The notes below the pieces were generated by a model that was not told where the DNA came from, ran no database searches, and worked only from the letters and a program-made list of their open reading frames with translations. A DNA stretch of 64,000 nt from an uncultured Kriegella sp. (GTDB lineage: Bacteria; Bacteroidota; Bacteroidia; Flavobacteriales; Flavobacteriaceae), in NCBI RefSeq assembly GCF_963975415.1, contig NZ_CAXBGN010000011.1, positions 67,410-131,409 of the forward strand. Reading direction: 5' to 3'. Both the position numbers and the translations under genes were made by a program. Numbering within the stretch: the stretch's first letter is position 1; every line of letters starts with the position of its first letter. Positions 1,663 to 30,319 of the stretch are shown here, one piece after another.

Positions 1663-1671
1663 AAAAATATC

Positions 1672-3159: not shown

Positions 3160-3198
3160 TAACGTAAAAACCATTTAGATTGAGTTAGTCGCAGTTGT

Positions 3199-3232
3199 AA
3201 AAACAGTGTGTTACGCGACACACTGTTTTTTT
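3199..3232 (+). terminator. Rho-independent terminator after the SusCD pair
   Basis: Perfect 9-bp stem ACAGTGTGT (3203-3211) / ACACACTGT (3218-3226) with a 6-nt loop. An A-run precedes it and a T-run of 7 follows. Confidence 0.75.
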
Positions 3233-3285
3233 CTTCTGTTTCGTTCAAAAGCTGTAAATTATGAATTGAAAGTCTACCACATATC

Positions 3286-6200: not shown

Positions 6201-6597
6201 TTTAAAATCGGCACTGCACTACCAAGTGAAGTCATTTGCCAGTGTTTATTTGGAAAATAAAAATGGTCGATTCATTGTACATGAACTCCCCATCGAGGCA
6301 CAGACTTCAAGCATAAACGGAATTCTAGCGGATGACTATGACAAAGACGGTCTTTTAGACCTGCTTATTGCCGGCAACTTATACGCTTCAGAAGTAGAAA
6401 CCCCTCGTAACGATGCAAGCTATGGTCTTTTTCTTAAAGGAAACGGGAAAGGTAGTTTTAAGGCAGTTCCCGCATCAGAAAGCGGATTTTTAGTACCTGG
6501 AGATGTAAAAGATTTGGCTACTATCGACTATAATAACAAGACCTATGTTGTTGCAGCGAAGAACAACGATGCAATGCAATTTGTTGAACTGAATTAA
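3286..6597 (+). CDS. VCBS/FG-GAP repeat protein with ASPIC/UnbV domain (CRTAC1-like), probable lipoprotein
   Basis: 1103 aa with a signal peptide plus Cys (LLSNCS). Many DxDxDGxxD[IL] FG-GAP/VCBS-type repeats. UnbV/ASPIC-like block around NRYLTIKFEG...GLGNRVYV. Confidence 0.8.
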   Translation: MKISLIYKIYLYSIGLMLLSNCSPKKVQQKEDTKIFSALSSSETGIDFANNLIENDSLNYFTYSYLYMGGGVATGDINNDGLLDIYFTGNQVPNKLYLNKGSLQFEDITQSAGVAGDNRWYTGVTMADINGDGFLDIYCSVGGKFAPKNNELYLNNGDGTFSEKAALYGIDDIGNSVQATFFDYDKDGDLDLFVANYPPTKFDSPTFVYAYKMKNVKNDETGHLYENDGDHFIDVTNTSGLRAFGLSLSATVGDLNNDSWPDLYVSNDFNSPDFMYLNNQDGTFSEVIKEATSHTAFYGMGTDISDFNDDGNLDIFQVDMSAQNNRRQKANMASMNIDLFWDVVDAGFGYQYMHNCMQLNSGVFENDIPHFSNVSRITGTSSTDWSWGPLFADFDNDGLKDLFVSNGTRREINNNDYFNKLKNLKLSADTLLQLSLKIPSEKIDNFIFKNKGNLEFEQANKTWGIEFKGFSNGVVYADLDNDGDLEIITSNIDDPASVFENKSSENNRYLTIKFEGESMNKFGLGNRVYVSANGHSQMQELTLTRGFQSSVAPELHFGLAKLEKIDSLKVVWTDGKVQKLKNIEANQTLVLKHSEAVGSEIRTSHKSKSFALDATGIFPEHQHQENNYNDFEKQVLLPHKMSAFGPALAIGDMNNDGLDDYFIGGSANFSGSIFFQFSNGFEKQITPFLEGDKLSEDTGALLFDADGDGDNDLYVVSGGYEFKPDSKTLQDRLYLNDGNGNFTKADSTSLPEMKTSGSKVYHADFDQNGKEDLLVLGRQVPGNYPSPASSYILKNDSRANEVRFDFSAEMQPPEFENLGMATDAVITDFNNDGRLDIIVVGEWMPIRIFKNTNRGFVEVSEAMGLTKDTTGWWWSIEQGDFDQDGDMDYVVGNNGLNYKYKANENETFDIFANDFDNDSNEDIVLSYYNEGKQYPVRGRSCSSQQIPSIKQKFEDYESFADATLIEVYSEKSLKSALHYQVKSFASVYLENKNGRFIVHELPIEAQTSSINGILADDYDKDGLLDLLIAGNLYASEVETPRNDASYGLFLKGNGKGSFKAVPASESGFLVPGDVKDLATIDYNNKTYVVAAKNNDAMQFVELN

Positions 6598-7155
6598 ATG
6601 ATAGGGCAAAATACCCAAGGCGCTTTATTCCAATTGACATAGAAAGTTAATCTTCAAACAGACTTAAAGTTCGATGGCTTCACCGGGTCGATATGCGATT
6701 TCTGCAACCTTGAACTATCTTAAATAAGAGGCGCCTTTTGACAAACTTGGATCATGATAGCATAAATACCATTTGTTTTCTAACTTACAGATGGGATGCT
6801 GTGAGAGGCCTTAATAAGAGCTAAAATACGTATAGCGCACGTGAAAAGGGCATATGGGGTATTCCTTAATGACATAACCACTGTAATGCCCGTTTCCTGT
6901 AGCATAAGAAAGGAGCATCTACCCTGATATTTATAAACCCACGATCCTTTAACGAAATTCCGCTCAATTCCCCCTATGAATAAAAAACCACTCTTCATGG
7001 CTACAATCTGAACTTCTTTTGAAGCTGATTTTAAAACAATAGCGGTATATTATATTCTATGCCCAACGATGATTTAAACATGGCATCTGTACCATATTTT
7101 TAGCATAATTTTTAAGTTTCAATTTGGTTAAATTCTAATCAAAAAAATTCACGTA

Positions 7156-10100
7156 TTATTTCAACTCTGTTGGCAATACACCAAAGTGTGCCTTAAAACA
7201 TTTCGTAAAATAGGAAGGTGATGAAAAACCCACTTTAAAGCATACCTCACTGATCGATTCATTGCCAGCCTCTATCATTTGTTTCGCTTTCTCCAATCGT
7301 ATTCTACGTAAAAACTCATTCGCGGAATAACCCGTCAGCGCTTTTATTTTTCGATACAATTGACTCCGGCTCAAATGTAATTCTTCCGCTAAATGTTCTA
7401 CATTGAGGTTTTCATCAGACATGTTCGCTGATATATAGTCCAACACCTTGTTGATGAACTTTTTATCTAGGTTTGTCGTATTCCCAAGTATTTTTACGTT
7501 GTTAGAATCTTTGAAATATTTATTAAATAGAATTTGACGACTGGAGATAATTTGCTTGAGTTGTGCCTTTAAAACCTTCATTTCAAAAGGTTTGCTTAAG
7601 TAAACGTCAGCCCCGGAATCTATGCCCTTTACCCAATCATCGGTCATTGCTTTTGCTGTCAACATCAACAACGGAATATGACTTGTCTTAAGATCCTCTC
7701 GAATACGTTTGCAAAACTCAAATCCATCCATTTCAGGCATTACGACGTCTGTCAAAATCATATCTGGAATTCTTTTCGTAGCCACTTCTAATCCTTGAGC
7801 TCCATTAACCGCTTCAATAATCATATAATCATGGTTTAATTCGTTCTTAAGGTAATCCCGTAATTCTGTATTATCTTCAACGATAAGCAAGGTTTTTTGA
7901 CCATTTGACCCCAATATTTGGTGAATGATTTCTTCTTCAAATTCCGGTACGGAAACCTCTTTACTTTCCTCTTCTGGCCCCAAAAACAATTCATTGGCTT
8001 GAAAATGAGCATTTCCCAAGGGCAAAAAAACCCTGAACTTTGTACCAATTGCCTCATCACTTTCAACCACTACCTTTCCCTTTAAAAGGTCTACAAAGTT
8101 TTTAACTACTTCGAGACCAATACCTGTTCCGCCATAGTACTGACTATTCATTTTTTCGACCTGATAGAACCGCTCAAAAACCTTTTCTATTTCCTCTTTC
8201 TTTATACCGCTGCCGGTATCTTCTACATAAATTTCTAAAGCGTGAACAGGCTGATCTGTATATATCAAAGGAAAAATCACCTTTTGGTTGCACCTCATAA
8301 TTCCCACGGTAATCGCTCCATGGTCAGGTGTTATTTTAAATGCGTTTGAAAGTATGTTGAAAATTATTTTTTCAAGCATAGATGGATCACTCCACAACGT
8401 GATAGGGAATTCGTCTGATTCTACTTCGAATACAATGTTTTTGAGTATCGCCTCTTCCTCAAAATGACCACTGATTTCCTTTACAAAAGATATCGCCTCG
8501 ATTTCGGAAATTTTAACTGACAACTTATTAATTTCAAGTTTCCTGAAATCCATCAGTTCATCTATCAACCGTTTTAGTCTGCTTGTATTCTTATGTATAA
8601 TTCGTAATTTTTCTTGAATGGTCTTTGTCAAAACAATTCCTGAATCGTGCATAATATCTTCTAAAGGATTCAGAATAAGTGTCAATGGGGTTCTAAACTC
8701 ATGTGAGATATTGGTGAAAAACTGAATTTTTCTATCATTTAGTGTTTCTTCTTGAATTCTTCTATCTCTTTCAAACTGTACGATGCGTTTTTCCCTTATT
8801 CGTTGTTTGATCAGGTTCGTCAAAAAGTAAGACGTCAATACCACGGCGAGCACGTAAAAAAATATTGCCAAATTAGTGCCCCACCAAGGACGTAGTATCG
8901 TCAATTCTAAAGTTTGGGGGGTTTCGTTCCAAACGCCATCGTTATTTGCAGCTTTTACTTTAAAGGTATAATCACCCGGGGGCAAATTGGTATAGGTAGC
9001 ACTTCTGGTTTCGCCAACATAATTCCATTTATTTTCAAAACCTTCCAAATAAAATGCATATTGATTTTTCTTGGGTCGGGTAAGGTTCATACCTGCATAT
9101 TCAATTGTAAATACAGATTGATGATGTTTTAAAGTAAGGCTTTCAGTCTGGCCAATGACCTTTTTTAAAGGAGATAGCTCTTGGTTTGGAACTACAGATT
9201 TATTAAAAAGCTTAAAATCGGTAAAATAGACTTGGGGCTTATTTGTATTTAATTTAATGTTTCGTGGATTTACATAGTTAATCCCCCCATAGTTACCGAA
9301 ATATATAACACCATCTTCATCTTTATAGGCGGCATTAAAATTGAAATCGTTCGAGAGTAAACCGTCGTTCATATCAAAGTTCTTGAAAGTCTGGCTTGTC
9401 CTATCAAACTGCGAAAGGCCATTGTTACCTGCCATCCAAAGGTTTCCGTTATCATCTTCCAAAATTGACGCAATGGTTTCTTGGCCTAGACCGTCTTTTT
9501 GACCGTACCAAACAAAACTTTCGTTGTTTGGATCATATCTGCAGAGACCGGCGCCATCCGTTCCTATCCACATCAATCCTTTACTATCTTCAAATAATGA
9601 AACAATCACATCGACCACGAGTTTATTCCCTAAATCTTGGTGCATGCTTTCCTTTAGTGAAATTACTTTTTGGGGCTTTGTTAATTCACTCGACAGTTTA
9701 TAAAGACCTGCAGTAGTCCCCATCCAAATGGTATCGTTTTTATCGACCAATACTTTTCGCATAGCGCCTTGACCAGGACTGGGGTCTTCGAATATTGCAT
9801 TGTTATGGTGACTGAAATTTTTATTGATCGGATTATAGGAATGTAACCCTTGAACATAAGAGCCAATCCAGATAGTTCCCCTCGAGTCTTCCGAAAAACT
9901 CATAATGCGGTTCGACCTTAACCCACAATTCGTATTCGACACCGTATAGTTAATGAAAGTGGCTGTATTGTTGGGTAGAAAAAAAATTCCGGAGTTCCAG
10001 GTACCCACCCACAGGTTATCCTTGCTATCCATAAAAAGGGCTACGACGTCTCCGGCGTCTAAGCCCGATAGAATATTGTTCTTCGAATTTTTTAGGTGTA

Positions 10101-11289
10101 CGATATTCTTCTTAACGGGGTCATAGAGATCAATACCACCGCCATCCATACCGATGAATATGCGGCCACTTTTTCCTTTTACAATTCCGGTAACCGACGG
10201 CAATTGCAAAGAATTGCTCATATTGGCGAGGCTCTCAATGTCTTTAAATTTGTCTGAAAGACCGTCGTATACGCCTACACCATTATTATAATAGCCTATC
10301 CAAATTCGACTTTGTGTATCAACAAATATTGACCAAATAGAATTCGATTTTATACTGTTGGCGTCAAATTTACTGTATCGATAATTTTTACGGAGGGTTC
10401 CATTTTTTTTCAACACGAAAAGCCCGTCATTTTCAGTACCACATAAAATATTGCCGTCGGAAGCCTGTGCAAGGGATAATACTCGTTGGTCGGTTATTCT
10501 AAAGTTATGTACCTCATAGGAATTAAAGGCAGTTACCTCTACTTTTATCAAGCCATTGGAAAATGTGCCAATCCATATCGAACCGTCATCATCTTGCAAC
10601 ATAGATTCGATATTATAGGAGAAATCGGTATCGGAAGACTCGTAAATAGATAAAACCGGATGAGCCTTTGTACCGTCATACTCAAAAAGGCCCTGATTGG
10701 CCCCCATCAATAACTTGCCGGTACTACTTTTTATCAAGCTATTTATTTCAAGATCAGAAATTCGTGTATTGGTAATTATGGGTACGCTATAACCTCTTAA
10801 AGTTTCTGGATCCACCTCGAAAAGGCCATTGTAGTGAGAGCCGATTACCAATGTACCATTTGAGCTCTCTTGAATCGCCTTGATCGGCACATTTTCTAGC
10901 GCTACCGAATCTCTGTAAAGCACTACCTGTTTGAATTCGTCGTAATCGCGATCATATAAATTCAACCCGGCTTTGGTTCCGATCCACAATCTATCTGATC
11001 TATCGACATACGTAACATAAATCAAAGAGCTACTCAACGAGTTATCTTCATTGAAATCTTGCTTATATGACACGAAATCAATACCGTTATATTTTTTTAA
11101 CCCGACCCCGTTTGTACCCATCCATATTAATCCGAGGCTATCTTGCACAATGCTTGAGACCGCCCTTTGGGTGTTGTTCTGCTCTATATTGACGAAAGTA
11201 TATTCTTCAGGGCTATCTTGAGCATTTGTATAACTGCTGATTAGCAATACAATGGAAATACCAATTTTAATTATAAGGGCAACTTTCAT
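7156..11289 (-). CDS. Hybrid two-component system regulator (beta-propeller sensor, HisKA, HATPase, receiver, AraC HTH)
   Basis: Periplasmic propeller-type repeats, one TM, H-box SHEFRTPL, HATPase G-boxes, receiver (MILTDVVMPEMDG) and a C-terminal AraC-type HTH. The start is placed at MKVAL (11289); the track's start at 11313 is also possible. Confidence 0.9.
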   Translation of the reverse strand: MKVALIIKIGISIVLLISSYTNAQDSPEEYTFVNIEQNNTQRAVSSIVQDSLGLIWMGTNGVGLKKYNGIDFVSYKQDFNEDNSLSSSLIYVTYVDRSDRLWIGTKAGLNLYDRDYDEFKQVVLYRDSVALENVPIKAIQESSNGTLVIGSHYNGLFEVDPETLRGYSVPIITNTRISDLEINSLIKSSTGKLLMGANQGLFEYDGTKAHPVLSIYESSDTDFSYNIESMLQDDDGSIWIGTFSNGLIKVEVTAFNSYEVHNFRITDQRVLSLAQASDGNILCGTENDGLFVLKKNGTLRKNYRYSKFDANSIKSNSIWSIFVDTQSRIWIGYYNNGVGVYDGLSDKFKDIESLANMSNSLQLPSVTGIVKGKSGRIFIGMDGGGIDLYDPVKKNIVHLKNSKNNILSGLDAGDVVALFMDSKDNLWVGTWNSGIFFLPNNTATFINYTVSNTNCGLRSNRIMSFSEDSRGTIWIGSYVQGLHSYNPINKNFSHHNNAIFEDPSPGQGAMRKVLVDKNDTIWMGTTAGLYKLSSELTKPQKVISLKESMHQDLGNKLVVDVIVSLFEDSKGLMWIGTDGAGLCRYDPNNESFVWYGQKDGLGQETIASILEDDNGNLWMAGNNGLSQFDRTSQTFKNFDMNDGLLSNDFNFNAAYKDEDGVIYFGNYGGINYVNPRNIKLNTNKPQVYFTDFKLFNKSVVPNQELSPLKKVIGQTESLTLKHHQSVFTIEYAGMNLTRPKKNQYAFYLEGFENKWNYVGETRSATYTNLPPGDYTFKVKAANNDGVWNETPQTLELTILRPWWGTNLAIFFYVLAVVLTSYFLTNLIKQRIREKRIVQFERDRRIQEETLNDRKIQFFTNISHEFRTPLTLILNPLEDIMHDSGIVLTKTIQEKLRIIHKNTSRLKRLIDELMDFRKLEINKLSVKISEIEAISFVKEISGHFEEEAILKNIVFEVESDEFPITLWSDPSMLEKIIFNILSNAFKITPDHGAITVGIMRCNQKVIFPLIYTDQPVHALEIYVEDTGSGIKKEEIEKVFERFYQVEKMNSQYYGGTGIGLEVVKNFVDLLKGKVVVESDEAIGTKFRVFLPLGNAHFQANELFLGPEEESKEVSVPEFEEEIIHQILGSNGQKTLLIVEDNTELRDYLKNELNHDYMIIEAVNGAQGLEVATKRIPDMILTDVVMPEMDGFEFCKRIREDLKTSHIPLLMLTAKAMTDDWVKGIDSGADVYLSKPFEMKVLKAQLKQIISSRQILFNKYFKDSNNVKILGNTTNLDKKFINKVLDYISANMSDENLNVEHLAEELHLSRSQLYRKIKALTGYSANEFLRRIRLEKAKQMIEAGNESISEVCFKVGFSSPSYFTKCFKAHFGVLPTELK

Positions 11290-11999
11290 AATGTCATTAA
11301 AAAAGAATAGCACTTTACGAAAACAATTGTTCTTTCAAGCTTTGAAACCAATCAAAATGTTTTTGAAAAACAACCCGAACATTAAGCCGTTCGTTTAGAT
11401 TCATTTACGGCAAAATCGATCTAAAGTATCAATATAATTAGAAAAAATAGTATACTTGTTCAAATGCATCATAATTACTAGCATGGGCAACATGAATGCT
11501 ACTTTCTTATGGCAGAATCATACATTTTAGAATACTACTTCCCGTTTTCAACGGCAAAAATGTTTAATTACCGCAAAACATATCTTAAAGAATATCTGCT
11601 GTAGTTTCATCACCCTACATAAGATTATCCACTAAAAAATGAACATACCCAATGAAACGGAATTTTAATATAATACCAAGAGAGATAAGAGGAAAGGAAG
11701 ATTATGATTATTACTTGGGGAATTCAAAAGAATATGAAATACGGTAACCATATACGAAAATACAATGGCTTTTGACAAAAAAAATTGAAGAAAGTAAAAT
11801 GGTAGCGCGATGCCACTTATTTACTTTATTTTCTAACCTTTTTTAATAAAAGCTTCTAAAACGAAGAAAAAGATGCAAAATCTATAAGGCCATAAATCGT
11901 TAAAATTCCCTTTGTACCTGATATCGGGCATCATAGGAACCAACAACTATTAATTTTCCCAGTGCTTCAAAGAGAAACAATTCAAGACGAAAACTTAGG

Positions 12000-13142
12000 T
12001 TATTTGTAACTGTAGGCTATCTGAGCTAGCTGACCAACAATTTTAACGGAATCTTTCATAGATAATTTAGAGCCATCAGCATGTATCCATCTTTTTAAGG
12101 GTTGCTCACAAATTAATTTTTTGGTCTGCTCTTTCCCATAAAATTTTCGCATCCTCATAAAAATTTCGACATCGAATAGCCATTTTGTGATGAACTTTTC
12201 ATTGAACATATTCATAGCAATTTCCCTATCCATAATTTTAGCACCACACTGTGTGTCCTTAAATGGCATGCCTAATATGGTCTGAATAATTAAGTTAATG
12301 GTCATACTTATGATTTTTCGTGCCGATTCTTTGGTAATATTGGCTCCCATTCTACTAATTCTAGAACCGCTTACAATTTTAAAATCAGAGTTTTCAATGG
12401 TCTTAACCAAATCATCAAAATCTCTAAAATCCGTAGACAGATCAGCATCTAAAAATCCAATGTAGTCAAATTGTTCGTCTTTGACCAAATGCAATACGCC
12501 TTGGCGTACGGCTTCAGCCTTACCCCCATTTATCTCACAATTATAAACACTTATATTATTGGGGTTCGCATTTTGTAATTCTTCCAAAACTGCCAAGGTA
12601 TTATCTGTACTTCCATCATTCACCAAACACAAATGGTAACCTAGGTTTTTATGGGCGAACTGCTTAAACTCGGCACTCAGCAATCTATCCTCTTCATTAT
12701 AACAGGGAATAACCACGCCGACCACGTTCTTCTGCAGCATACGTGCTTCATTTCTTTCCTCGGTTGTATTGACTGTCGTTGCCGGCACACCAATAATACG
12801 CTTAATTCTTGCAGCCATCTCTTCAAGACTCACAGGCTTTTTCATGTAGTCATCTATTCCTAAAGTGAAACCATCCATGATAACCTGTTCATTGGTATTC
12901 CCTGACATTACCAATACTGGTGTTTTGGATTTCTTTGTTAGGCGAATAAATTCTACAACCTTTAAACCAGACATATCTGGCATGTTAATATCGACCAAGA
13001 CCAAATCTGGTTCAAAGGTTTCATAAAGCGACATACCGGTTTCTCCTGAATTAGCGGTCATTACCTCATAACCTAGTTCCGACAGTTTTTTTTCGACCGA
13101 TAGCAGTATTAATTTTTGATCATCAATGGCCAATATCTTCAT
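12000..13142 (-). CDS. Response-regulator receiver domain fused to a GT2 glycosyltransferase (Dpm1/GtrB/CsbB-like polyprenyl-phosphate glycosyltransferase)
   Basis: The N-terminal REC has all key residues: DD at 8-9, the acceptor Asp in LVLVDINMP, S in VMSG and K in YMKKP. The C-terminal GT2 has VIPCYNEE, VNDGSTDNT and DAD in GFLDADLS. Confidence 0.85.
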   Translation of the reverse strand: MKILAIDDQKLILLSVEKKLSELGYEVMTANSGETGMSLYETFEPDLVLVDINMPDMSGLKVVEFIRLTKKSKTPVLVMSGNTNEQVIMDGFTLGIDDYMKKPVSLEEMAARIKRIIGVPATTVNTTEERNEARMLQKNVVGVVIPCYNEEDRLLSAEFKQFAHKNLGYHLCLVNDGSTDNTLAVLEELQNANPNNISVYNCEINGGKAEAVRQGVLHLVKDEQFDYIGFLDADLSTDFRDFDDLVKTIENSDFKIVSGSRISRMGANITKESARKIISMTINLIIQTILGMPFKDTQCGAKIMDREIAMNMFNEKFITKWLFDVEIFMRMRKFYGKEQTKKLICEQPLKRWIHADGSKLSMKDSVKIVGQLAQIAYSYK

Positions 13143-13398
13143 AGTTTTTAATTTGGTTAAGAATTTAAAGGATAAGGTTTTGGGACGTATCTTTTATTCC
13201 TAAGATTTCTAATTAATACAAGTTATTTTAAAGTTTGTGCTTTTTTTGTCGAGACAACCCCGATATACCATTTTTTTAAGTTGGACCAACATAAAATAAT
13301 TTCGTAGTCGTTTTCTTTCAAATAACGTTCATTTTGCCTCTCCTATTGTACTATTGTAAATTATTATTCGTTTCTAAGAGTAACGATTTTAATTCTAA

Positions 13399-16300
13399 AT
13401 GACCAAAAAGAGTACCAACCCTATTTTAGTGGTGGCCCTATTCATAGCCATAGCATTCCATGGTTCCAGTATTTTCTTTACCTTGGAGACTACCTATGAT
13501 GCCTTAATTCACCTTTTCTTTGCCGACCATTATGCCAATAGTTGGTTCGAACCTTGGGATTATCGATGGTATACCGGATTTACCGTTCAGGCATATCCGC
13601 CATTGGTACATCAATCGATTGCCATATTATCTTACATAGGAGGCTTAAAATTTGGAATGTTCTCAGTGGCAATGATCGGTATTGTTCTTTTCGTCACAGG
13701 TGCATACAGGTTCGGGCTTTTAATGACGGGAGACCGGAAAGTTGCAGGATACACCGCCCTACTTGCTGTATTTTCATCAACTTTTGTCGAAACACTTCAC
13801 ATTTTCGGCCAACTTCCCAGTATTGTCGGACTCTCTATTCTTTTACATTCCTTACCCGAAATATACCAATGGATAAAAACGGGAAAGCTCCGCTACTTTT
13901 TCACCTGCCTTTCGCTTATTGCCGTAACGGTAACCTCACACCATGTAACGCCCATTTTTGGTATGGTTTTTTTCATTTTTCCTTTGATAGGAATGGTGGT
14001 CATGGATGAGGCTTTTGATCAAGCCGGAAGTACGAAGAAGATCAGTTTTCGAATTTTTTGGAAAGCCTTTTTAAAACTTTTCTGGCGTATTGTGAAATTT
14101 GGAGGTGCTTCCCTAGTTTTAATTGTCTTTTGCATTTTGCCCTATTGGATCAATTCTAAAAAAAATCCGATTACCCAAGTCCCCATACCACACGGTTCTA
14201 GGGATAATTTCTTGGAAGTTACTTCGTCTGGTTTGGTATTTTTCGTAATCCCCTGGGGGGTGCTGCTTTTTATTCTACCCTATATTTTTTATCGATTTTA
14301 CAGCAAACGCTATTTATTCTTCGGGCTCTCTTTTACCATGCTGACCATTCTTGGCACCGGAGGAACAACACCCATTCCACTAAAATTATTAGGGGAAACG
14401 GCTTTTAATATTCTCACTTTAGATCGTTTTACGTTATGGGCAACGATTATAGCCTTGCCTATGTTTGGGGAATTTGCATATCGTATGGTAGAGGGTGATT
14501 TAAAAGAACACATGCAAAGGCGATTTGGCCCTGTCTATCATAGACTTGCCGGGGGGTTATTGGCCGGCGGTATCATTGTCATGGTCATTTTCACCATGAG
14601 TTTGGGGTATTTTAGACCCTCACAACCCCAAAAAATAAAAATGTTGCCCATTGTCAATTTCCTCAACCAAGATCAACACGATCAATGGCGCTATCTTCCA
14701 TTAGGCTTCGGGGATCAAATGGCCTGGCTATCGGCACAGACCAAGGCAATGACCGTTGATGGCAATTACCATTCCGCAAGGCGTTTGCCCGAATTGACAA
14801 CAAGGGCCATTGAGCGCTTAGAAAACTCCAAATTTAGAGGTGTCGAGGGCATCGGTTCATTGCAACAGTTCTTAACGGTACCCGAGAAATATAACCTAAA
14901 ATATATTTTCGCCAACGACAAATTCTATGACCCCCTACTCTATTTCTGCGGCTGGCAACGATTGCAGCAATTGGAAAACGGCATTATGGTCTGGGAAAAA
15001 CTAAATGTGCCCCCCCTCCCTAAAGTACTGGCAAAAGAAGATGTATCGGTCTTCTTAAAAATAATTTGGGGCCTTATTCCTATCTCGACGGTAATCATCG
15101 CGTTTATACTCAATATTCAATCAATCTGGTTCCGAGCCTTAAAATCACATAAATCACAGCCTTCCGACTATTTAAAGTATATCAAGATACATCGAAAGTT
15201 TTCAAACAATCTCATTACTTTCAATCTGCTCTGGGCCGGTTTTCTACTTTTAGTTCTCGGCTATGGCACCTATCATTTCTATTTAGACGAATCGGCACAA
15301 ATTAGTCCGGAAAACGTTGTAAGGTCTTACTATGATGCCTTGGATTTTAAGGAATTTGAAAGAGCATATTCTTATCTCGACCCTGAGGGGAATAAATCAC
15401 TTTCCCAATTTATGCTAGAGGTTTCGGTAACCGATGGAATTCTTAGTTCTTATGCCAAGTTAGATGCCATTGGGGTCGCCGTATCTGAGGAAACACCAAA
15501 TAGCGCATTGGCAAATGTTGGAATGCAATGGATTACTCCTTTAGAAAAAATAGCAAAACAAGAACGTCTTGAATTGGTAAAAAGAAAGGGGAAATGGTAC
15601 GTACGACCCAAAAGTATCGATACCGACATTCCTCCAGACCAACTATTCGAGAGCAACGAAACAAAATTCTATAATCATGGAAGACGTAAAATCACGACCC
15701 AACAGACCCATCATGAAGATGTATTGAAACAACCTGTGTTAGAAGTGCTGTCTGCCAAATTGGTCGAAATAGAATCCGAATACGCTATTGTTGGTGAAAT
15801 ACAGAACGTAGATGATGTTCCCGCAGATGTGGTGATTTCCGCCACCCTATACAATAATGAAAATGTCGAACTTGCTAAATTCAATGCCAAATATCATCTC
15901 AAGCATAAATTAATGCCTAAGGAAACCACTGCCTTCAAAATCTTGTTCGAAGGTATTGCATGGACAAATCCTGATGAACACATTCCTGAAACCTTTAATC
16001 CCAATGAATTCACAAAACTCGATTTAAAAGAAATACCTACCAAATTTAATTTACAATGTGCCGGCAATGTCGCCACGACCGACCTTTATAAGTCCATTAC
16101 CCTGCAAAAACTTCAAACCACAGAGAATATGCTTGAAGGGGAATTGTTCAATAGCGGTATACAAGAGGTTACTATTCCACAATTATTGATTTCATATTAC
16201 GATTCAGATAAAACTTTGGTTTGGGTAGATAGTAAATTTATGAGAGAAGGTGTACGAGTACAGCGTAAACAAAATTTTGAATATGAATTATTAGACATCC

Positions 16301-16491
16301 CGAACCTCAGTATCATAAGTAGCAGTTTAGAGAACTGTTTTGTTAATGGTTCACCTAATGCCACAATCGCGGAAAAGATTTTTCCCAATAGAAATCTTGA
16401 ACATAATCAAGAGTTATTACAACCACTGAAAGGCAACGGATATGATTTTATAAAAATTGAGTTGAATAGTTATATCGGAAATCCTAAGTAA
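13399..16491 (+). CDS. Large polytopic membrane protein. N-terminal half is GT-C-like (putative lipid-linked-sugar-dependent glycosyltransferase); the roughly 450-aa C-terminal half is extracytoplasmic.
   Basis: 1030 aa with about 13 hydrophobic segments in the first 600 aa and acidic residues in the first loop (ETTYDA, EPWD). The C-terminus shows an NTF2-like block (VVRSYYDALDFKEFERAYSYLD) and two beta-sandwich-like repeats. The coding call is firm; the function is inference. Confidence 0.5.
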   Translation: MTKKSTNPILVVALFIAIAFHGSSIFFTLETTYDALIHLFFADHYANSWFEPWDYRWYTGFTVQAYPPLVHQSIAILSYIGGLKFGMFSVAMIGIVLFVTGAYRFGLLMTGDRKVAGYTALLAVFSSTFVETLHIFGQLPSIVGLSILLHSLPEIYQWIKTGKLRYFFTCLSLIAVTVTSHHVTPIFGMVFFIFPLIGMVVMDEAFDQAGSTKKISFRIFWKAFLKLFWRIVKFGGASLVLIVFCILPYWINSKKNPITQVPIPHGSRDNFLEVTSSGLVFFVIPWGVLLFILPYIFYRFYSKRYLFFGLSFTMLTILGTGGTTPIPLKLLGETAFNILTLDRFTLWATIIALPMFGEFAYRMVEGDLKEHMQRRFGPVYHRLAGGLLAGGIIVMVIFTMSLGYFRPSQPQKIKMLPIVNFLNQDQHDQWRYLPLGFGDQMAWLSAQTKAMTVDGNYHSARRLPELTTRAIERLENSKFRGVEGIGSLQQFLTVPEKYNLKYIFANDKFYDPLLYFCGWQRLQQLENGIMVWEKLNVPPLPKVLAKEDVSVFLKIIWGLIPISTVIIAFILNIQSIWFRALKSHKSQPSDYLKYIKIHRKFSNNLITFNLLWAGFLLLVLGYGTYHFYLDESAQISPENVVRSYYDALDFKEFERAYSYLDPEGNKSLSQFMLEVSVTDGILSSYAKLDAIGVAVSEETPNSALANVGMQWITPLEKIAKQERLELVKRKGKWYVRPKSIDTDIPPDQLFESNETKFYNHGRRKITTQQTHHEDVLKQPVLEVLSAKLVEIESEYAIVGEIQNVDDVPADVVISATLYNNENVELAKFNAKYHLKHKLMPKETTAFKILFEGIAWTNPDEHIPETFNPNEFTKLDLKEIPTKFNLQCAGNVATTDLYKSITLQKLQTTENMLEGELFNSGIQEVTIPQLLISYYDSDKTLVWVDSKFMREGVRVQRKQNFEYELLDIPNLSIISSSLENCFVNGSPNATIAEKIFPNRNLEHNQELLQPLKGNGYDFIKIELNSYIGNPK

Positions 16492-17720
16492 TGAAAATCT
16501 TCATCGCCATCATAACTTTAATACTCATTGTCTCGTGCCGAACCGAGGTATTGGAGAACAAGACCCCCAATATAAAAGTGTCTCTGAATGCTTCCAATGA
16601 ACAACAGACCGTAAGTAGTGAATTATGTCTTAACTTTGAAATACAAGGTGAAAAAGTACCACAATTATATTTGACCAATGCCATTGGATCAACGATTATT
16701 ACAGGTACAAGAAAGAATAGCCATATCAGGTATTGCTTTCCAAAAAGTTATACCCGTCATGCCGGATTACTTAAATGGAAGATGGTCTCGAATGGAGAAA
16801 TCATCGAAAATGGCGAAGTCAACATGCGACCAGATTCGACCTTTGTTTTTATGGAATCTTATTTTGGTCCTAGGCAAATAACTGCTGGTGACATCGATTT
16901 TTCGATGTTAACGAACATACCTACCGATCAATTTGACAACCTATTACCAGACGGTACAACTGTTACCATAAAACGTCAATTTGAAAATCAAATGGATGAA
17001 TACGCTATTGAAACATCTGGGGGTATTGCATGGAAAAATATAGGAGCAACAAAAAAGGCAGGTCGTATGCTGGTAAGTTCCGCCTGTCTAGGCACCTACT
17101 CAAAACAACTTACGACTATGGTCTATTCGGCAATACCCGCTGATTTTACAATTCACTATGAACGTGATCATTCGTTTGCTGACGGCAACCAGATTTTAAC
17201 ATTGAAAACTTCGAAAATAGTCGATGACTATAACAATATTGTGAGCGATGGTACATATGTGAATTTTATTGTCGAAGATGCTTCGGGTACTTTATTACGT
17301 ACATCGGGCAACACACAAAATGGCATGGCCATAGCAAAGATACTTCACCCTGAAAGGCCCACAAAATGGAATATAAAGGCCTATGTCACTGGAGCCGCAA
17401 CCAGTAATCGGCTGGCTGTAAGCTTTGACCAATCGGTCAAAGATTTTGAAGTCAGCTTTGATGAAAATGAACGAGAAGTTGTCATTGGCCCTTTATATGG
17501 ATTTATCAATCAAAAAGTTCCCGATGGCATTAGCATAACTATTGAACTTAAATCAGAAGAGCATTTAATTTTAGAAAAGACCAAGCTTTTCACTAAAAAT
17601 GGAATGACGTCATTAAAGCTTCCCGCAGAGTTTTATCCTCCAGGAACCTATGCGATTACGATAAATTCCATGGGTATTAAAAAAGAACTAACCATTAAAC
17701 TCTATGGCGACAAAAAATAG
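16491..17720 (+). CDS. Hypothetical lipoprotein
   Basis: 409 aa with signal peptide plus lipobox (LILIVSC). Its start overlaps the upstream stop (TAATG), suggesting translational coupling. Confidence 0.6.
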   Translation: MKIFIAIITLILIVSCRTEVLENKTPNIKVSLNASNEQQTVSSELCLNFEIQGEKVPQLYLTNAIGSTIITGTRKNSHIRYCFPKSYTRHAGLLKWKMVSNGEIIENGEVNMRPDSTFVFMESYFGPRQITAGDIDFSMLTNIPTDQFDNLLPDGTTVTIKRQFENQMDEYAIETSGGIAWKNIGATKKAGRMLVSSACLGTYSKQLTTMVYSAIPADFTIHYERDHSFADGNQILTLKTSKIVDDYNNIVSDGTYVNFIVEDASGTLLRTSGNTQNGMAIAKILHPERPTKWNIKAYVTGAATSNRLAVSFDQSVKDFEVSFDENEREVVIGPLYGFINQKVPDGISITIELKSEEHLILEKTKLFTKNGMTSLKLPAEFYPPGTYAITINSMGIKKELTIKLYGDKK

Positions 17721-19230
17721 AAATGCATATCGGGCGTTTTTGTTGCTTTCCTTTCTCGGGGTCAACATGCTAATTCTATTCGGAATCGGCTCTGCATGGT
17801 CTTATTTAAATACAGGAGCGGATCGTTCTACAATGCTGCACCTCGAAAGTCAATTAAACGAAACTTATCTACCTAAAGTGATATGGTCGGATACGCTAGG
17901 CGAAGGACGTCCATTAGAGAAGCAGACGCTTACAAAAATAGAAAAAGACTATAAACGTGCTTGGTATGTACGCAACCTGGCGTACAGAAATCAAAATGAC
18001 TACGGTCTTGACGATTATTATACAGACAGTGCCTTGATAAAATTTAAAAGGATTTTAGACTTGAACAAAGCCTCTGGCGTCAAAATAAAATCGACAACTA
18101 TTTCACACAACCCAGATTTGGAATTCTACAGTGCCGATGGCCAACTGGTGGTTTTCAAAGACAATAATGTAGCATCATACAGTCAAATCTATCGTAATGA
18201 CAGCCTTTTCCTTGAGCATAAAAGCACTGCAAATTACAGAGTCATCATGCTGCTCGAGGATGGTTTTTGGCGAATACGCCATCTGCAGGAAATTCCATCG
18301 GTATTACAAGACGGTATTGCCGAAAATGACAGCAACAAACTACCGATCGATTTTACCAAAATACGTGGCGTAAACTATTATCCGCAGAAAAACCCATGGG
18401 ATATGTTCGGTGAAAATTTTGATAGCCTGGTGGTTCGTAAAGATTTTGAAAGAATTCGTAAAATGGGTTTGAATATGGTGCGTATTTTCGTACCGTATGA
18501 GAATTTTGGGAAAAATATCATAGACCAGAACAAACTTAAACAATTAAAAAATGTGATGAATATTGCATTGGAAACAGATCTTAAGGTGATGGTCACCTTA
18601 TTCGATTTTTATGGAAATTATGATATTGACGATTGGACGCTAACTCATAGACACGCCGAAATTGTTGTAAATTCTTTGAAGAACCATAAAGCTCTTTTGG
18701 CTTGGGATGTAAAGAACGAGCCGGATCTAGACTTTGATTCAAGAGGGTTTACCACGGTAACCGCTTGGTTAAAAGAAATGATTGCGCAAATCAAGAGTTG
18801 GGACCCCGAACATGATGTCACCATAGGTTGGTCATCAACCGAAGCGGCAACCAATCTTACAGAAGAAGTAGATTTGGTTTCTTTTCATTATTACAAAAAA
18901 CCGGAAGATTTTGTCAAAGCATACCATCAACTACAAGATAAAGTAAACAACAAGCCGTTTATGTTGCAAGAATATGGATTATCTTCCTATAGCGGCGTTT
19001 GGAACGCCTTTAGTGGATCTGAAGAAAAGCAGGCTGCGTATTATAAGCAGATGCAAGAGTATATCTCTCAAGAAAATCTACCTTTCGTATTCTGGACCCT
19101 ATATGATTTCAATGAAGTACCCACTTCGGTAGTAGGCCGATTACCTTGGCGTAAAACACCTCAAAGACATTATGGCTGTATTAATGAGGAAGGAAATCCA
19201 AAGCCTTCTTACCAGTTTCTGAAGCAATAA
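17704..19230 (+). CDS. Membrane-anchored clan GH-A (GH5-like) glycoside hydrolase
   Basis: 508 aa with an N-terminal TM anchor. TIM-barrel signatures are present: acid/base motif WDVKNEPD and a nucleophile-type motif FMLQEYG. It overlaps the upstream gene by 17 nt. Confidence 0.7.
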   Translation: MATKNRNAYRAFLLLSFLGVNMLILFGIGSAWSYLNTGADRSTMLHLESQLNETYLPKVIWSDTLGEGRPLEKQTLTKIEKDYKRAWYVRNLAYRNQNDYGLDDYYTDSALIKFKRILDLNKASGVKIKSTTISHNPDLEFYSADGQLVVFKDNNVASYSQIYRNDSLFLEHKSTANYRVIMLLEDGFWRIRHLQEIPSVLQDGIAENDSNKLPIDFTKIRGVNYYPQKNPWDMFGENFDSLVVRKDFERIRKMGLNMVRIFVPYENFGKNIIDQNKLKQLKNVMNIALETDLKVMVTLFDFYGNYDIDDWTLTHRHAEIVVNSLKNHKALLAWDVKNEPDLDFDSRGFTTVTAWLKEMIAQIKSWDPEHDVTIGWSSTEAATNLTEEVDLVSFHYYKKPEDFVKAYHQLQDKVNNKPFMLQEYGLSSYSGVWNAFSGSEEKQAAYYKQMQEYISQENLPFVFWTLYDFNEVPTSVVGRLPWRKTPQRHYGCINEEGNPKPSYQFLKQ

Positions 19231-19301: not shown

Positions 19302-20540
19302 TTACACGTCTACAACCGAATCTTCAGTCTTTGTATGCGTGATACTTTTTAAATCGAAATTTGAGTTCTTAAGTTGTATGGCTTTAAAACAATCGATGTA
19401 CATTTTCGTTATAGCCGACATGGGTAATGAACAGGCCGCCTTGTAATTAGCCTTCGCCAACTCCGTGCGATACGATTCATTAGTCAATATACTTTGTATC
19501 GCATCTGCCAATGAATCAGCTTTATCGGCTTCAAAAAACTCTCCCCTATACCCTTCGTCTTCTATCAAAGAAGCCAAATCGCCTAAGTTGGGCAGCACCA
19601 CCGCCTTACCATAACTACCGGCTTGGTGCAACACCCCAGAGCTACCTGTAGTCGAGGTATACGGAAAAACTACGACAGCACTTTCACCGAAAATTACAGG
19701 AACATCCTCTTCGGCAACATAACCTGTAAAACGTAACTGCTCTACTCCTGCATATTGCTTGGCTACGTTCTCCAAATAGCCTGGTGTATTTGGGCTATCG
19801 GTACCCGCAATGACAATTTCGATATTTTCATCTGTACGTTTCCGTATTTTTTCTACCGCTTCAATCAATACCTCTACCTTTTTATAAGTACCAAACTTAC
19901 CAAAAGCCATTACCTGTTTCGCGCCTTTGGGCAATTGGTAATTCGGTTCTGGTGGTATCTCAAAAGACCCGTGGGGAATCTGAACCACGTTCTTGGCTTT
20001 GTATTTTTTCTCTAGAATTCCAACATACTTGGTTATGGTTACAGCCACAAGATCTGAAGCCAAAACAAAACGTGTCAAGGTAGATCCGATAAAACCGTAG
20101 ATTTTCTGTAACAATTTATTCTTAGTGAACCCTGCACTTTCCAAGTCAACTGTCTCCAATATATTATGCAACAATGAGATACAAGGAATACCTTTAAGTT
20201 TACATATGAAGGGCATAAGAAGACCCAAGGCAGCCGGCACCTTTTTATCCCCAAATTTTAAGAATTGTAAGTTGAATAAAACAGCATCGGGCTTGGTGCG
20301 GTTCAAGGCTCTATTAATATCCAATATATTTTTGTAGCTATTGAAGCTCCAGCTTTCGGCTACGGTTATTTTACAACCCTCTTCTTCAAAAGAAATGTCT
20401 TTTTCTCCTTCCGTTCGGTCGGTAATCAAAATAATCTCGTCTACATCGGATTGAAGTCTAAAGTGTTTTACGAGATGGTATGCATACTCCGTAAGGGTAA
20501 TTTTACTTGGCGGATATGCCGTTACAATTGCTAATTTCAT
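19302..20540 (-). CDS. GT4-family (GT-B fold) glycosyltransferase
   Basis: 412 aa. The C-terminal half shows the typical GT1/GT4 pattern (FGKFGTYKK..., FTGYV..EDVP, VVVFPY..TTGSSGVLHQA..YGKAVV). Confidence 0.8.
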   Translation of the reverse strand: MKLAIVTAYPPSKITLTEYAYHLVKHFRLQSDVDEIILITDRTEGEKDISFEEEGCKITVAESWSFNSYKNILDINRALNRTKPDAVLFNLQFLKFGDKKVPAALGLLMPFICKLKGIPCISLLHNILETVDLESAGFTKNKLLQKIYGFIGSTLTRFVLASDLVAVTITKYVGILEKKYKAKNVVQIPHGSFEIPPEPNYQLPKGAKQVMAFGKFGTYKKVEVLIEAVEKIRKRTDENIEIVIAGTDSPNTPGYLENVAKQYAGVEQLRFTGYVAEEDVPVIFGESAVVVFPYTSTTGSSGVLHQAGSYGKAVVLPNLGDLASLIEDEGYRGEFFEADKADSLADAIQSILTNESYRTELAKANYKAACSLPMSAITKMYIDCFKAIQLKNSNFDLKSITHTKTEDSVVDV

Positions 20541-20551
20541 TTTTCTTTTTT

Positions 20552-21829
20552 TTATAAGTTTGTTTGATTATCCGTTTGAAGTTCTATATGGTTGGGCCTA
20601 TTGTTCTTATAAATAAAATACCCCAACTGCACAGCCAATAAAATGGCCATTGCCAGAATTTGTACGAGAACTACCTGTTCAAGACTGTCATGATAAATGG
20701 CTATCAAAGCCACTTGGGAAATACCCAAAATTCCTGATAGAATTACTGGACCATAATGGTCTAGGGAAAGATAGTAGTAGGCAAAAATGTTTGAAATGGC
20801 AAAAAGTGAGGTTGCCAAGGCGTATTTCCAAAGTAACCCTGCGATACTTAAATATTCCTCTCCGAACATCAACTGAACGATAAGCTCTGGAAACATCCAA
20901 CACGCAAGTACGATACAGGTTGATAGCAAGCCAATAATAAAAACATACTTAAACAAGACCGGAGCCGTCGACAAACCATCTTTCTTACGTTGCACCACGG
21001 TGGGCAGTAGTATCATAACGAACATCCAGGCAACAAAATATACCACCCTGCCTATCAAGGCAAGTGAGGCATACAAACCAGCAGTGGTCGCATCGAAATA
21101 ATGCTTCACCATTAAAATATCACTGTTGTTAATAATAATCTGGGTGCCTTCATAACATGCCGTAAGAATGATGAACATCGATACATTTTTGGCATTTTCA
21201 GGTGTTAAACGCACTGATTTTTCAAAACTGAAGTTTTTAATATCGGTCGGAATCATGCCAAACAAAAACGATATCAAAATACCAGAAGCGACCAAAGTGG
21301 TCGCATCAAACGGAAGCACCATCACAAAAAACAAAGTAAGCAAGAGCCTACTCCACATTTCGGTTTGGTAACTGGTTGAAAGTTTAATAAACTCCATATT
21401 GCCCTGGTAAATACCCCGGTTTACGCTCATTAAAAAATACAATGGAACCCCTACGGCAAATACAATAAACATTGAAGAAGTTTCCGTTTGAAATAATTGT
21501 TGCAAGTCTTTTGCAAAGAACAGCATCAAAACCATTGCTATTAAACCAATGATGAGCGACCCTTTATATAACTTAAACCGAAACCGAGACCACTGCCCTC
21601 CCTCCAACAACACAGCAAATTTTGCGGAGGCCAGTTGAAAAGTCATACCAACAAAAGACAGCACTAGTAATAAAGTAACGAGCAATGCGGCTTCAGCAAA
21701 AACAGCCGGCCCCAAAATTCTTCCCAGTAAAAGATTATAAATATAATTGCCCCCATTTACCAAGAGCACGCTAAACATGAATATTTGTTCGGGAGAAATT
21801 TTTCGCAATGCCAATCGATATACGGTCAT
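20552..21829 (-). CDS. MOP/PST-superfamily polysaccharide transporter (Wzx/PelG-like)
   Basis: 425 aa with about 12 predicted TM helices. It lies 11 nt upstream of the GT4 gene on the same strand. Confidence 0.6.
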   Translation of the reverse strand: MTVYRLALRKISPEQIFMFSVLLVNGGNYIYNLLLGRILGPAVFAEAALLVTLLLVLSFVGMTFQLASAKFAVLLEGGQWSRFRFKLYKGSLIIGLIAMVLMLFFAKDLQQLFQTETSSMFIVFAVGVPLYFLMSVNRGIYQGNMEFIKLSTSYQTEMWSRLLLTLFFVMVLPFDATTLVASGILISFLFGMIPTDIKNFSFEKSVRLTPENAKNVSMFIILTACYEGTQIIINNSDILMVKHYFDATTAGLYASLALIGRVVYFVAWMFVMILLPTVVQRKKDGLSTAPVLFKYVFIIGLLSTCIVLACWMFPELIVQLMFGEEYLSIAGLLWKYALATSLFAISNIFAYYYLSLDHYGPVILSGILGISQVALIAIYHDSLEQVVLVQILAMAILLAVQLGYFIYKNNRPNHIELQTDNQTNL

Positions 21830-24486: not shown

Positions 24487-25197
24487 CTATAACAGGTTTA
24501 ACCTTCGCATCAATTCGGGCCTACTATTACGGCTGATAGGAACAACATTTTTTTCTATTAAAACGCTGTTATCTTCAATATCTATTATCTTGGTGAAGTT
24601 TATTATATACGACCGATGAATCTGTAGAAATGATTTTTCGGGTAACTTTTGCTTTATGTTTTTTAGGGTCGTATGAACGTGATATTGCTGCTTTTCCGTT
24701 AGAATATCAATATAGTCGCCATTTACCTTTATCAAGAGTACTTCTTCAAACTTTAATTTTATCAAACGCCTATCGATGTTGATGTAAAAATAATCTTCAG
24801 CACCGAAACCTTCATGTTCCCCTCCCTCTTTTTTTGCAGGTGTCACCAATGCACTTTTTATTTTTCGAATCGATTTTTCAAAACGCTCAAAATTTATAGG
24901 TTTCACCAAATAGTCTACTATTGATTCATATTCATAGGATTCAATGGCAAAATTAGTGTCAGAGGTAATCAAGACTACCTTGGGAGAATCTTTTAAAGTT
25001 CGTACAAAATCAACTCCACTAAATCCTGGCATGTGAATATCTAAAAACACCACATCGACGGTAGATTGATTTAAAAACTTTATGGCATCGATGGCATTGT
25101 CAAATTGGGCTACTACCTCTATATCTGAAACTTTAGAAGAAAATCTTGCCACTATCGCTCTTGCGGCTTTCTCATCATCTACGATAATACAGGTCAT
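24487..25197 (-). CDS. LytTR-family response regulator (REC + LytTR DNA-binding domain)
   Basis: 236 aa with receiver (IIVDDE, VVFLDIHMPGFSG, KP) and LytTR signature (FLQIHRSYIINF). Confidence 0.9.
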   Translation of the reverse strand: MTCIIVDDEKAARAIVARFSSKVSDIEVVAQFDNAIDAIKFLNQSTVDVVFLDIHMPGFSGVDFVRTLKDSPKVVLITSDTNFAIESYEYESIVDYLVKPINFERFEKSIRKIKSALVTPAKKEGGEHEGFGAEDYFYINIDRRLIKLKFEEVLLIKVNGDYIDILTEKQQYHVHTTLKNIKQKLPEKSFLQIHRSYIINFTKIIDIEDNSVLIEKNVVPISRNSRPELMRRLNLL

Positions 25198-25199
25198 TG

Positions 25200-27716: not shown

Positions 27717-27723
27717 AAAACGC

Positions 27724-30244: not shown

Positions 30245-30319
30245 AAAACTGATTTAGTTTTTAAAGGTAGGAAAAGTATGACTTTTACATAAAATTTTGT
30301 TGTGAAACGCCGTTTTTAG

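Follow-up and report, generated by a model that had tools for sequence, protein, structure and literature searches.

A candidate phosphorylation-gated pathway for lipid-linked glycan assembly in Flavobacteriaceae, centered upon a receiver-GT2 fusion and a GT-C-fold membrane protein

The established scheme closest to the locus described here is a three-component one, in which a GT2 synthase, a MATE/MOP flippase, and a GT-C enzyme act together (PMC11127046). Its examples include GtrA/GtrB/Gtr* of Shigella and Salmonella, ORF15/ORF13/ORF12 of Citrobacter (PMC11127046), and CsbB/YfhO, all of which combine a cytoplasmic GT2-type polyprenyl-phosphate sugar synthase with either a GtrA-type or a MATE/MOP-type flippase and a GT-C transferase carrying extra periplasmic domains. 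Here, we describe a 64,000-nucleotide stretch of DNA from an uncultured Kriegella sp. of the Flavobacteriaceae (RefSeq assembly GCF_963975415.1, contig NZ_CAXBGN010000011.1, positions 67,410 to 131,409; referred to as the window, to which all coordinates below apply), in which a gene fusing a two-component receiver domain to a GT2 glycosyltransferase (receiver::GT2) is divergent from a gene encoding a 1030-amino acid (aa) membrane protein. All three parts of the scheme have counterparts in this locus. However, the synthase carries an N-terminal receiver and is devoid of transmembrane helices, the GT-C-like enzyme belongs to an uncharacterized branch, and the module adds a GT4 glycosyltransferase, a GH-A hydrolase, a lipoprotein, and a TPR protein, while being unattached to any O-antigen or teichoic-acid locus. 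Based upon its domain content, residue conservation, folds, and synteny, we read the module with moderate confidence as encoding a phosphorylation-gated, lipid-linked envelope or exopolysaccharide pathway, which would represent a variant of three-component GT-C glycosylation and not a side-chain modification of the Gtr type.

Lipomannan and arabinan assembly in mycobacteria employs the GT2 enzyme Ppm1, the GT4 enzymes PimA/B, and the GT-C enzymes Emb/Aft/Mpt, while N-glycan assembly on dolichyl phosphate in Haloferax employs AglJ/AglD (GT2), the flippase AglR, and AglS/AglB (GT-C). In both cases, the GT2 synthase has few or no transmembrane helices, GT4 steps occur in the cytoplasm, the product is flipped, and the periplasmic GT-C enzymes have large C-terminal domains resembling carbohydrate-binding domains. 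The Kriegella locus shares some of these characteristics, as EmbA/B and AftA are among the fold matches of its 1030-aa protein and AglJ is a weak family match of its GT2 domain. Even so, there is no family membership at the sequence level, the phylum is a different one, and we know of no receiver on any of the mycobacterial or Haloferax synthases.

Fusions of phospho-signaling domains to glycosyltransferases do have precedents. A receiver joined to a BcsA-like glycosyltransferase is known in Methanobacteriaceae from a census (MTH_548; PMC5847659), and the Anabaena STAS-glycosyltransferase All4160 has been reported to be subject to phospho-control via its fused STAS domain and the HenR phosphatase (bioRxiv 10.64898/2026.04.08.717354). 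As in both of these proteins, the Kriegella fusion places a phospho-signaling domain upon a polysaccharide glycosyltransferase, such that control would be post-translational, and STAS proteins accompany relatives of the module as well. Unlike the processive BcsA-like or membrane-bound glycosyltransferases of the two precedents, the GT2 domain here is of a soluble, ArnC/DPM1-like type; the precedents also belong to other lineages and neither is paired with a GT-C enzyme. An earlier, sequence-only reading of this locus had proposed an unusual switch. Both kinds of fusion are already on record, while the particular wiring found here is undescribed. A literature search returned no studies in which an ArnC/DPM1-type synthase carries a receiver, and none on this GT-C branch or on the gene cluster, be it in general or in Zobellia, Cellulophaga, or Maribacter.

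The exopolysaccharide machines gated by cyclic di-GMP (c-di-GMP), such as Bcs, Pel, Pga, and alginate, similarly encode a hydrolase, a lipoprotein, and a TPR protein along with the synthase, and their signal acts directly upon the enzyme. The same three accessory parts are present in the Kriegella module and its relatives in Proteobacteria adjoin GGDEF/EAL and H-NOX/EAL genes. In contrast, both a processive membrane synthase and a PilZ or other c-di-GMP receptor are absent here; the core consists of a GT2 enzyme, a flippase, and a GT-C enzyme, while the input is a receiver domain. The Pel system was also considered as an identity for the module, since it has a comparable set of GT4, 12-helix, TPR, lipoprotein, and hydrolase components, but it was not adopted because there were no matches to Pel families and the GT2 and GT-C proteins have no Pel counterpart. 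Overall, the components are recognizable and it is the wiring that is new, namely the receiver on a carrier-charging enzyme, the H-NOX neighborhood, and the uncharacterized GT-C branch.

The receiver::GT2 gene (380 aa; identified as an open reading frame [ORF] with Pfam domains) is located at 12000 to 13142 on the reverse strand and the gene of the 1030-aa membrane protein at 13399 to 16491 on the forward strand, with a divergent intergenic region of 256 bp between them (13143 to 13398), which is the arrangement previously read from the sequence. By sequence comparison, these are real genes and not chance ORFs, because both proteins are 70 to 84% identical across many genera. The fusion consists of a receiver (residues 1 to 118; nt 12789 to 13142, reverse strand), a linker (residues 119 to 140) that is predicted to be disordered with a predicted local distance difference test score (pLDDT) of <50, and a GT2 domain (residues 141 to 380; nt 12003 to 12722, reverse strand). 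Pfam detects Response_reg over residues 3 to 114 (E 1.3e-24, 87 bits against a cut-off of 30.2) and a family scan places the receiver closest to the OmpR/PhoB type. In the AlphaFold model of the whole protein (pLDDT 77.7, predicted template modeling score [pTM] 0.61), which has two domains separated by a disordered linker at 122 to 136, the receiver exhibits five strands alternating with helices in a (beta/alpha)5 arrangement and template modeling scores (TM-scores) of ~0.9 to YycF/MicA, PhoP, and Spo0F. We aligned 88 orthologues from 76 related genomic loci, which served as our comparison set. Despite an overall identity of ~75%, residues D7, D8, D51, S80, Y99, and K102 (as K102-P103) are conserved at 98 to 100%. 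As all six phospho-chemistry residues are so much more conserved than the remainder of the protein, a pseudo-receiver would be unexpected, nothing else points to one, and the receiver appears to be a phosphorylatable, working phospho-acceptor. The prediction of a complete CheY-like receiver with all of its phospho-chemistry residues is thus supported, as is the claim that the fusion has no DNA binding output, since a Pfam scan of the 380-aa protein found no DNA binding domain.

The second half of the fusion matches Pfam Glycos_transf_2 (residues 143 to 310, E 1.6e-23, 83.9 bits). Its top sequence matches in the PDB are ArnC (2e-8), GtrB (2e-7), and archaeal DPMS (4e-5), while the ten highest-ranked fold matches of the model are exclusively ArnC, GtrB, or DPMS. 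NCBIfam matches extend over most of the domain (ArnC 3e-14, PpgS 2e-9, AglJ 1e-7, and PgfS 1e-7), with all scores falling far under the equivalog cut-offs. The motifs NDGSTD, LDADLS, DTQCGAK, FDVE, and EQPLKRWxHxxGSK are invariant; within the DXD motif at LDAD 231 to 234, D232, A233, and D234 are invariant and L231 is at least 90% conserved. We take the DTQCG(A/F)K and E-x-P-x-x-W-x(4)-GSK motifs to be typical of the DPM1/ALG5/ArnC group, and some of the UniRef entries for the fusion are named dolichyl-phosphate beta-glucosyltransferase. With ArnC, GtrB, and DPMS closest in both sequence and fold, the earlier assignment to a Dpm1/GtrB/CsbB-type GT2 was upheld. From these matches and the model, the enzyme probably functions like a polyprenyl-phosphate sugar synthase, although we do not claim orthology to any characterized member. 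Regarding the sugar, ManC genes near the modules of relatives and weak GH5-mannosidase matches in relatives hint at mannose, whereas the UniRef name specifies glucose.

The 1030-aa protein was previously suggested to have ~13 transmembrane segments with acidic residues in the first loop, a large extracytoplasmic C-terminal half, and possibly a GT-C fold. An AlphaFold2 model derived from 82 diverse sequences is of high quality (pLDDT 91.1, pTM 0.90) and has approximately 12 to 13 membrane helices in residues 8 to 400. Beyond this GT-C module (~1 to 400), the model contains an alpha/beta soluble domain (401 to 550), a helical hairpin (551 to 631), and a beta-rich part of ~400 residues (632 to 1030) comprised of an NTF2-like domain and beta-sandwiches, which by Foldseek resembles the NTF2-like N-terminal region of PBP2a together with beta-sandwiches. 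All 18 of the 18 best Foldseek matches (E ≤4e-4) are GT-C enzymes, including STT3 (4.6e-8), PglB (7e-6), DPY19 (3.7e-5), ArnT (7e-5), EmbA/B (3e-4), and AftA (4e-4). The target-normalized TM-scores are mostly 0.42 to 0.52, but 0.36 for PglB and 0.17 for EmbA/B, the latter being poorly aligned overall. Among the 82 relatives (23 to 65% identity), D34 of the first loop is at least 90% conserved and is positioned three residues past the helix at 8 to 31, H38 is invariant, and H44 is at least 90% conserved. H181, R230, H265, R268, GGTT321-324, and D342/R343 are also conserved along the membrane module, and the basic N-terminus ahead of the first-loop Asp/His is consistent with an N-in topology. 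An exhaustive search recovered 949 clusters of relatives at 50% identity, which occur in both a full-length form and a form of ~570 aa lacking the C-terminal half. PTPS_related was matched by 13 of 53 relatives (best 8e-10) and PMT_2 by 3 of 53 (3e-8); both families are in the GT-C clan, with the function of PTPS_related being listed as unknown (PMC7801869). Four of the 53 relatives additionally carry a Wzy_C domain of the O-antigen ligase/polymerase type (P0358 and P0410 among the fusion carriers) and one of the 53 carries a GT4 domain, fusions that suggest a role in polymer assembly. Judging from both the model and these relatives, the 1030-aa protein appears to have a GT-C fold (GT-C_A type) and to belong to an uncharacterized branch near PTPS_related. 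The confident model, the GT-C matches, and the conserved Asp/His loop are therefore as expected for the proposed GT-C partner, and the lack of a GT-C fold or catalytic loop, which the sequence-only reading had named as refuting it, was not observed.

At a TAATG junction, the 1030-aa gene shares part of its stop codon with the start codon of a gene encoding a 409-aa lipoprotein-like protein with Ig-like repeats (16491 to 17720, forward strand), and the latter overlaps by 17 nt with the gene of a 508-aa membrane-anchored clan GH-A (GH5-like) hydrolase (17704 to 19230, forward strand), which agrees with the proposed translational coupling of these genes. The first residues of the 409-aa protein, MKIFIAIITLILIVSC, resemble a lipoprotein signal; the protein has a single N-terminal hydrophobic segment and a weak Invasin_D3 match (1.3e-4) that is below the Pfam threshold. 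Its orthologue adjoins the GT-C-like gene in every complete locus as well as in distant loci. The hydrolase likewise has one N-terminal hydrophobic segment and matches Cellulase/GH5 PF00150 (8e-13) and the GH2 TIM barrel (3e-11). It is 28% identical to an Octadecabacter orthologue with the NEP and (Q/S)E-x-G motifs aligned, which would be the expected positions of the acid/base and the nucleophile, respectively. On the reverse strand, a GT4 glycosyltransferase of 412 aa (19302 to 20540; Pfam Glycos_transf_1, 3.3e-22) is syntenic in all complete loci and in distant loci, and upstream of it is the gene of a 425-aa, 12-helix MOP/Wzx-type flippase-like protein (20552 to 21829) with ~10 to 12 hydrophobic segments. 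The latter has no Pfam match itself, but its orthologue in locus L080 (35% identity, E 4e-68) matches Polysacc_synt_3 with 32 bits against a cut-off of 23; identity to the L081 and Henriciella orthologues is 38% and 25%, respectively. Lastly, a secreted TPR protein of 686 aa (22231 to 24291, forward strand; TPR_19 5e-24, weak DUF481 match 0.0037) is syntenic wherever that flank is visible, including distant Bacteroidota. Its C-terminal half may form an outer-membrane barrel, although a PDB profile search for a PgaA/BcsC-like barrel in this region returned only TPR matches.

This module is conserved in ~70 Flavobacteriaceae loci from Maribacter, Zobellia, Cellulophaga, Ulvibacterium, Arenibacter, and others, with the order (receiver::GT2) > 12-helix protein > GT4 > < GH-A hydrolase < lipoprotein < GT-C-like > receiver::GT2. 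The fusion is found at either or both ends of the module, or after the GT4 gene in Zobellia, and it is always inside the module in Flavobacteriaceae loci, sometimes in two copies. The same set of genes recurs at 30 to 45% identity in distant Bacteroidota (L079, L080, and L082) and in the Alphaproteobacteria Octadecabacter (L077) and Henriciella (L078), and orthologues of the GT2, flippase-like, GT-C-like, and GH5-like proteins are linked in each of these lineages. Thus, the GT2/GT-C pairing noted in Kriegella is not due to chance. The GT2 enzymes of the distant loci in both Bacteroidota and Alphaproteobacteria all lack the receiver, which indicates that the fusion is a lineage-specific addition.

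Such a composition bears upon the type of pathway encoded. In a classical three-component decoration system, the GT2 would supply a polyprenyl-phosphate-linked monosaccharide, the 12-helix protein would flip it, and the GT-C-like enzyme would attach individual sugars to a glycan or protein from a separate pathway, in the manner of Gtr, CsbB/YfhO, or ORF15/13/12, with the receiver tuning the degree of decoration. The necessary trio of a synthase-like GT2, a MOP/MATE-like 12-helix protein, and a GT-C fold is indeed present and matches the described system with a MATE flippase, and the large beta-rich domains at the C-terminus could serve to bind a polymer that already exists, in the way of the carbohydrate-binding modules of Emb or ORF12 (PMC11127046). 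However, a GT4, a hydrolase, a lipoprotein, and a TPR protein are always part of the module itself, no adjoining locus for a primary polysaccharide or O-antigen was found in the window, and in L081 a phosphoglycosyl transferase and several extra GT4s take the place of the GT2, which is indicative of the assembly of a carrier-linked oligosaccharide and not of a monosaccharide donor. For these reasons, we consider decoration possible but rather doubtful, and the Gtr- or CsbB/YfhO-style unit proposed in the sequence-only reading gives way to a self-contained module resembling an exopolysaccharide or lipoglycan pathway, in which the GT2 may initiate synthesis and not simply provide a donor.

Several side observations concern the composition of related loci. 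Many Maribacter genomes encode two receiver::GT2 paralogues, one at each module end, with two-copy loci including L005, L006, L017, L021, L026, L028, L033-L037, L039, L048, L049, and L075. One paralogue class (388 aa) has an 8-residue insertion immediately past the phospho-acceptor loop, and decayed copies beside the GT-C-like gene are 209 to 316 aa (e.g. L024:19744-20694 and L055:19940-20569). In the window, there is neither a second nor a decayed copy between the flippase-like and TPR genes. Alongside the module, the Alphaproteobacteria-like loci L077 and L083 encode ManC (GDP-mannose), a small GtrA-like membrane protein, and another protein of GT-C type (DUF6311, ~900 aa), which together hint at a mannose-based lipid-linked donor.

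A number of points weigh against a lipid-linked pathway of this kind. The 1030-aa protein has no above-threshold match in Pfam or NCBIfam, its best Pfam match being a weak one to PTPS_related (E 0.018, 14 bits against a cut-off of 26.4), and a profile of its 82 relatives searched against PDB sequences yielded only noise. The 14-kb contig of the relative in L081 encodes a phosphoglycosyl transferase but lacks a GT2, so the GT-C-like enzyme is not strictly dependent upon the GT2. The model of the fusion is of only moderate quality and predicts no interface between the receiver and the GT2 domain. In addition, the 380-aa protein has no transmembrane helix or hydrophobic segment, unlike ArnC, GtrB, and archaeal DPMS, and its candidate membrane-interface helices at 273 to 290 and 362 to 379 are hydrophobic or only moderately amphipathic (hydrophobic moment 0.35 to 0.44), which is indecisive. 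The soluble-acceptor enzyme glucosyl-3-phosphoglycerate synthase (GpgS) is a nearly equal fold match (3.8e-9), and there are weak family matches to Osmo_MPGsynth and GpgS. On these grounds, the acceptor of the GT2 could instead be soluble or not a lipid, as with GpgS/MpgS, or the enzyme could extend a chain, and its link to the GT-C-like enzyme would then reflect only a shared pathway. Nonetheless, the top full-length sequence and fold matches are all polyprenyl-phosphate transferases, the invariant motifs are those that we attribute to the DPM1/ALG5/ArnC group, and the GT2, MOP-like, and GT-C-like genes remain linked across phyla, making a soluble acceptor very unlikely. Human DPM1 and mycobacterial Ppm1 are similarly without transmembrane helices.

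Adjacent to the TPR gene is a conserved regulatory block on the reverse strand (24487 to 30721), in which Pfam identifies a REC-LytTR regulator (24487 to 25197), a 358-aa histidine kinase (25504 to 26580), a FIST_N+FIST_C sensor protein (26580 to 27716), a 666-aa triple-PAS histidine kinase (27724 to 29724), and an H-NOX protein, which is a haem NO/O2-binding domain (29699 to 30244; HNOB 5e-39), that overlaps the start of the PAS kinase gene and is preceded by a 133-aa single-domain receiver (30320 to 30721). The FIST gene is positioned between the two kinase genes, an arrangement that is kept in other genera. The same block order adjoins the module in L045, L046, L062, and L068, four other genera in which this flank is visible, and it is partly kept in L024, L041, L052, L055, L060, and L061. 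It had been suggested that neighboring kinases might phosphorylate the receiver. This proposal retains conserved candidates in the block on the H-NOX side, whereas the adjacent 1385-aa hybrid kinase (7156 to 11313) is not syntenic elsewhere. We rejected the latter as the cognate kinase, as it is absent from all 76 related loci and goes with the upstream SusD/FG-GAP genes of a SusC/D-type locus.

Other lineages exhibit other signaling genes around the module. Small STAS proteins adjoin the flippase-like gene in L080, L081, L082, and on the contig of the short-form relative P0317, while L081 also carries a single-domain receiver. In L083, H-NOX and EAL genes directly follow the genes of the GT-C-like, 314-aa, and 488-aa proteins and GGDEF proteins are encoded nearby, whereas L077 has two PAS-GGDEF-EAL genes. 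The Henriciella GT2 (L078:7567-8715), which has no receiver, ends in a C-terminal tail of ~135 residues; in a pairwise comparison, this tail is 29% identical to the STAS protein of another locus (E 4e-4), although Pfam did not detect STAS in it. On comparison of these sequences, the signaling parts vary around a constant enzymatic core.

Regulation might also occur at the level of transcription. The 256-bp intergenic region presumably holds both promoters, and an alignment of this region from 17 loci in the range L001-L069 revealed that the start of the GT-C-like gene is adjoined by a ATAACAAT-N14-ATTGTTAT-type palindrome in many genera. At the place of this palindrome, the window has the direct repeat TACAATAG-TACAATAG, while other loci have a CCATTCNTCTAC box, as well as a TAnnTTTG-like box on the GT2 side. 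These boxes are possible operator or promoter sites at which, for instance, the LytTR regulator might act. If so, the receiver could be merely a constitutive dimerization or docking domain, i.e. a functional pseudo-receiver, with the pathway being controlled transcriptionally by a regulator such as LytTR. The conserved palindromic and repeat boxes, the syntenic LytTR regulator, and the lack of a predicted receiver/GT2 interface are all compatible with such a scenario, as is the decay of the GT-C-adjacent fusion in some genomes by truncation and loss of the DXD and SGNT motifs. Against it are the near-invariant phospho-chemistry residues of the 88 orthologues and the kinases that are conserved neighbors, and transcriptional control is also compatible with post-translational control. 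We therefore regard a purely structural role for the receiver as unlikely.

The remaining features of the window are separate from the glycan module. A polysaccharide-utilization-type locus (67 to 11313) includes a 531-aa ORF, a SusD-like protein (1672 to 3159), an FG-GAP/ASPIC protein (3286 to 6597), and the 1385-aa hybrid two-component regulator, which has an AraC output. Between the latter and the receiver::GT2 gene is an AT-rich stretch of 686 bp (11314 to 11999) with neither ORFs of ≥80 aa nor Rfam matches. Past the regulatory block on the reverse strand (31082 to 34598) are genes for a 698-aa sulfatase with a C-terminal PA14 domain and a 444-aa GH88-like protein, which are probably part of another degradative locus. 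An Rfam scan of the whole window detected zero RNA families.

Returning to the phosphorylation-gated pathway, a working model can be outlined. The 380-aa GT2, as a soluble or peripheral enzyme, would probably load a hexose onto polyprenyl phosphate at the cytoplasmic side of the membrane, after which the 425-aa MOP-type protein would flip the lipid-linked sugar, either directly or following extension by the GT4. The 1030-aa GT-C-fold enzyme would then use the flipped sugar in the periplasm, with the lipoprotein and the membrane-anchored GH-A hydrolase acting at the same site and the TPR protein acting further out, possibly in export, and the product would be a glycan that is either secreted or part of the envelope. 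The GT2 would be turned on or off through phosphorylation of D51, for which a candidate kinase in the H-NOX/PAS-kinase/FIST/kinase block is the most plausible source, thereby placing control at the first committed lipid-carrier step. Given a disordered linker and an OmpR-like receiver, gating would most plausibly proceed through receiver-driven dimerization or membrane recruitment. The lipid acceptor, the direction of regulation, the identity of the kinase, and the nature of the glycan are what we infer in this model. An initiating GT2, or at least a self-contained polymer pathway, is favored because the module has its own GT4, hydrolase, and TPR protein, because no primary polysaccharide locus adjoins it, and because a phosphoglycosyl transferase and GT4s replace the GT2 in L081.

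More tentatively, all of these loci could together represent an undescribed GT-C-dependent exopolysaccharide or lipoglycan pathway of Bacteroidota and Proteobacteria that is responsive to NO/O2 via H-NOX and reached by lineage-specific signal routes, a combination of claims that we consider doubtful as a whole. In this larger picture, Proteobacteria would signal through c-di-GMP enzymes and other lineages through STAS partner-switching, while in Flavobacteriaceae the signal would pass from an H-NOX-associated kinase straight to the receiver on the first lipid-carrier glycosyltransferase. If true, this would constitute a c-di-GMP-independent, enzyme-level on/off switch for matrix production and would provide a first function for the PTPS_related branch of GT-C enzymes.

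Flavobacteriaceae are major colonizers of algae and marine particles and the switching of surface polymers in this family is poorly known. c-di-GMP signaling is scarce in the phylum, and a receiver on a carrier-charging glycosyltransferase would be a simple enzyme-level switch. In two lineages that are far apart, H-NOX is encoded beside the module, which suggests that a gas sensor may be wired directly to glycan production. In addition, the conserved gene set gives a GT-C branch near PTPS_related a pathway context, candidate partners, and residues for point mutants.

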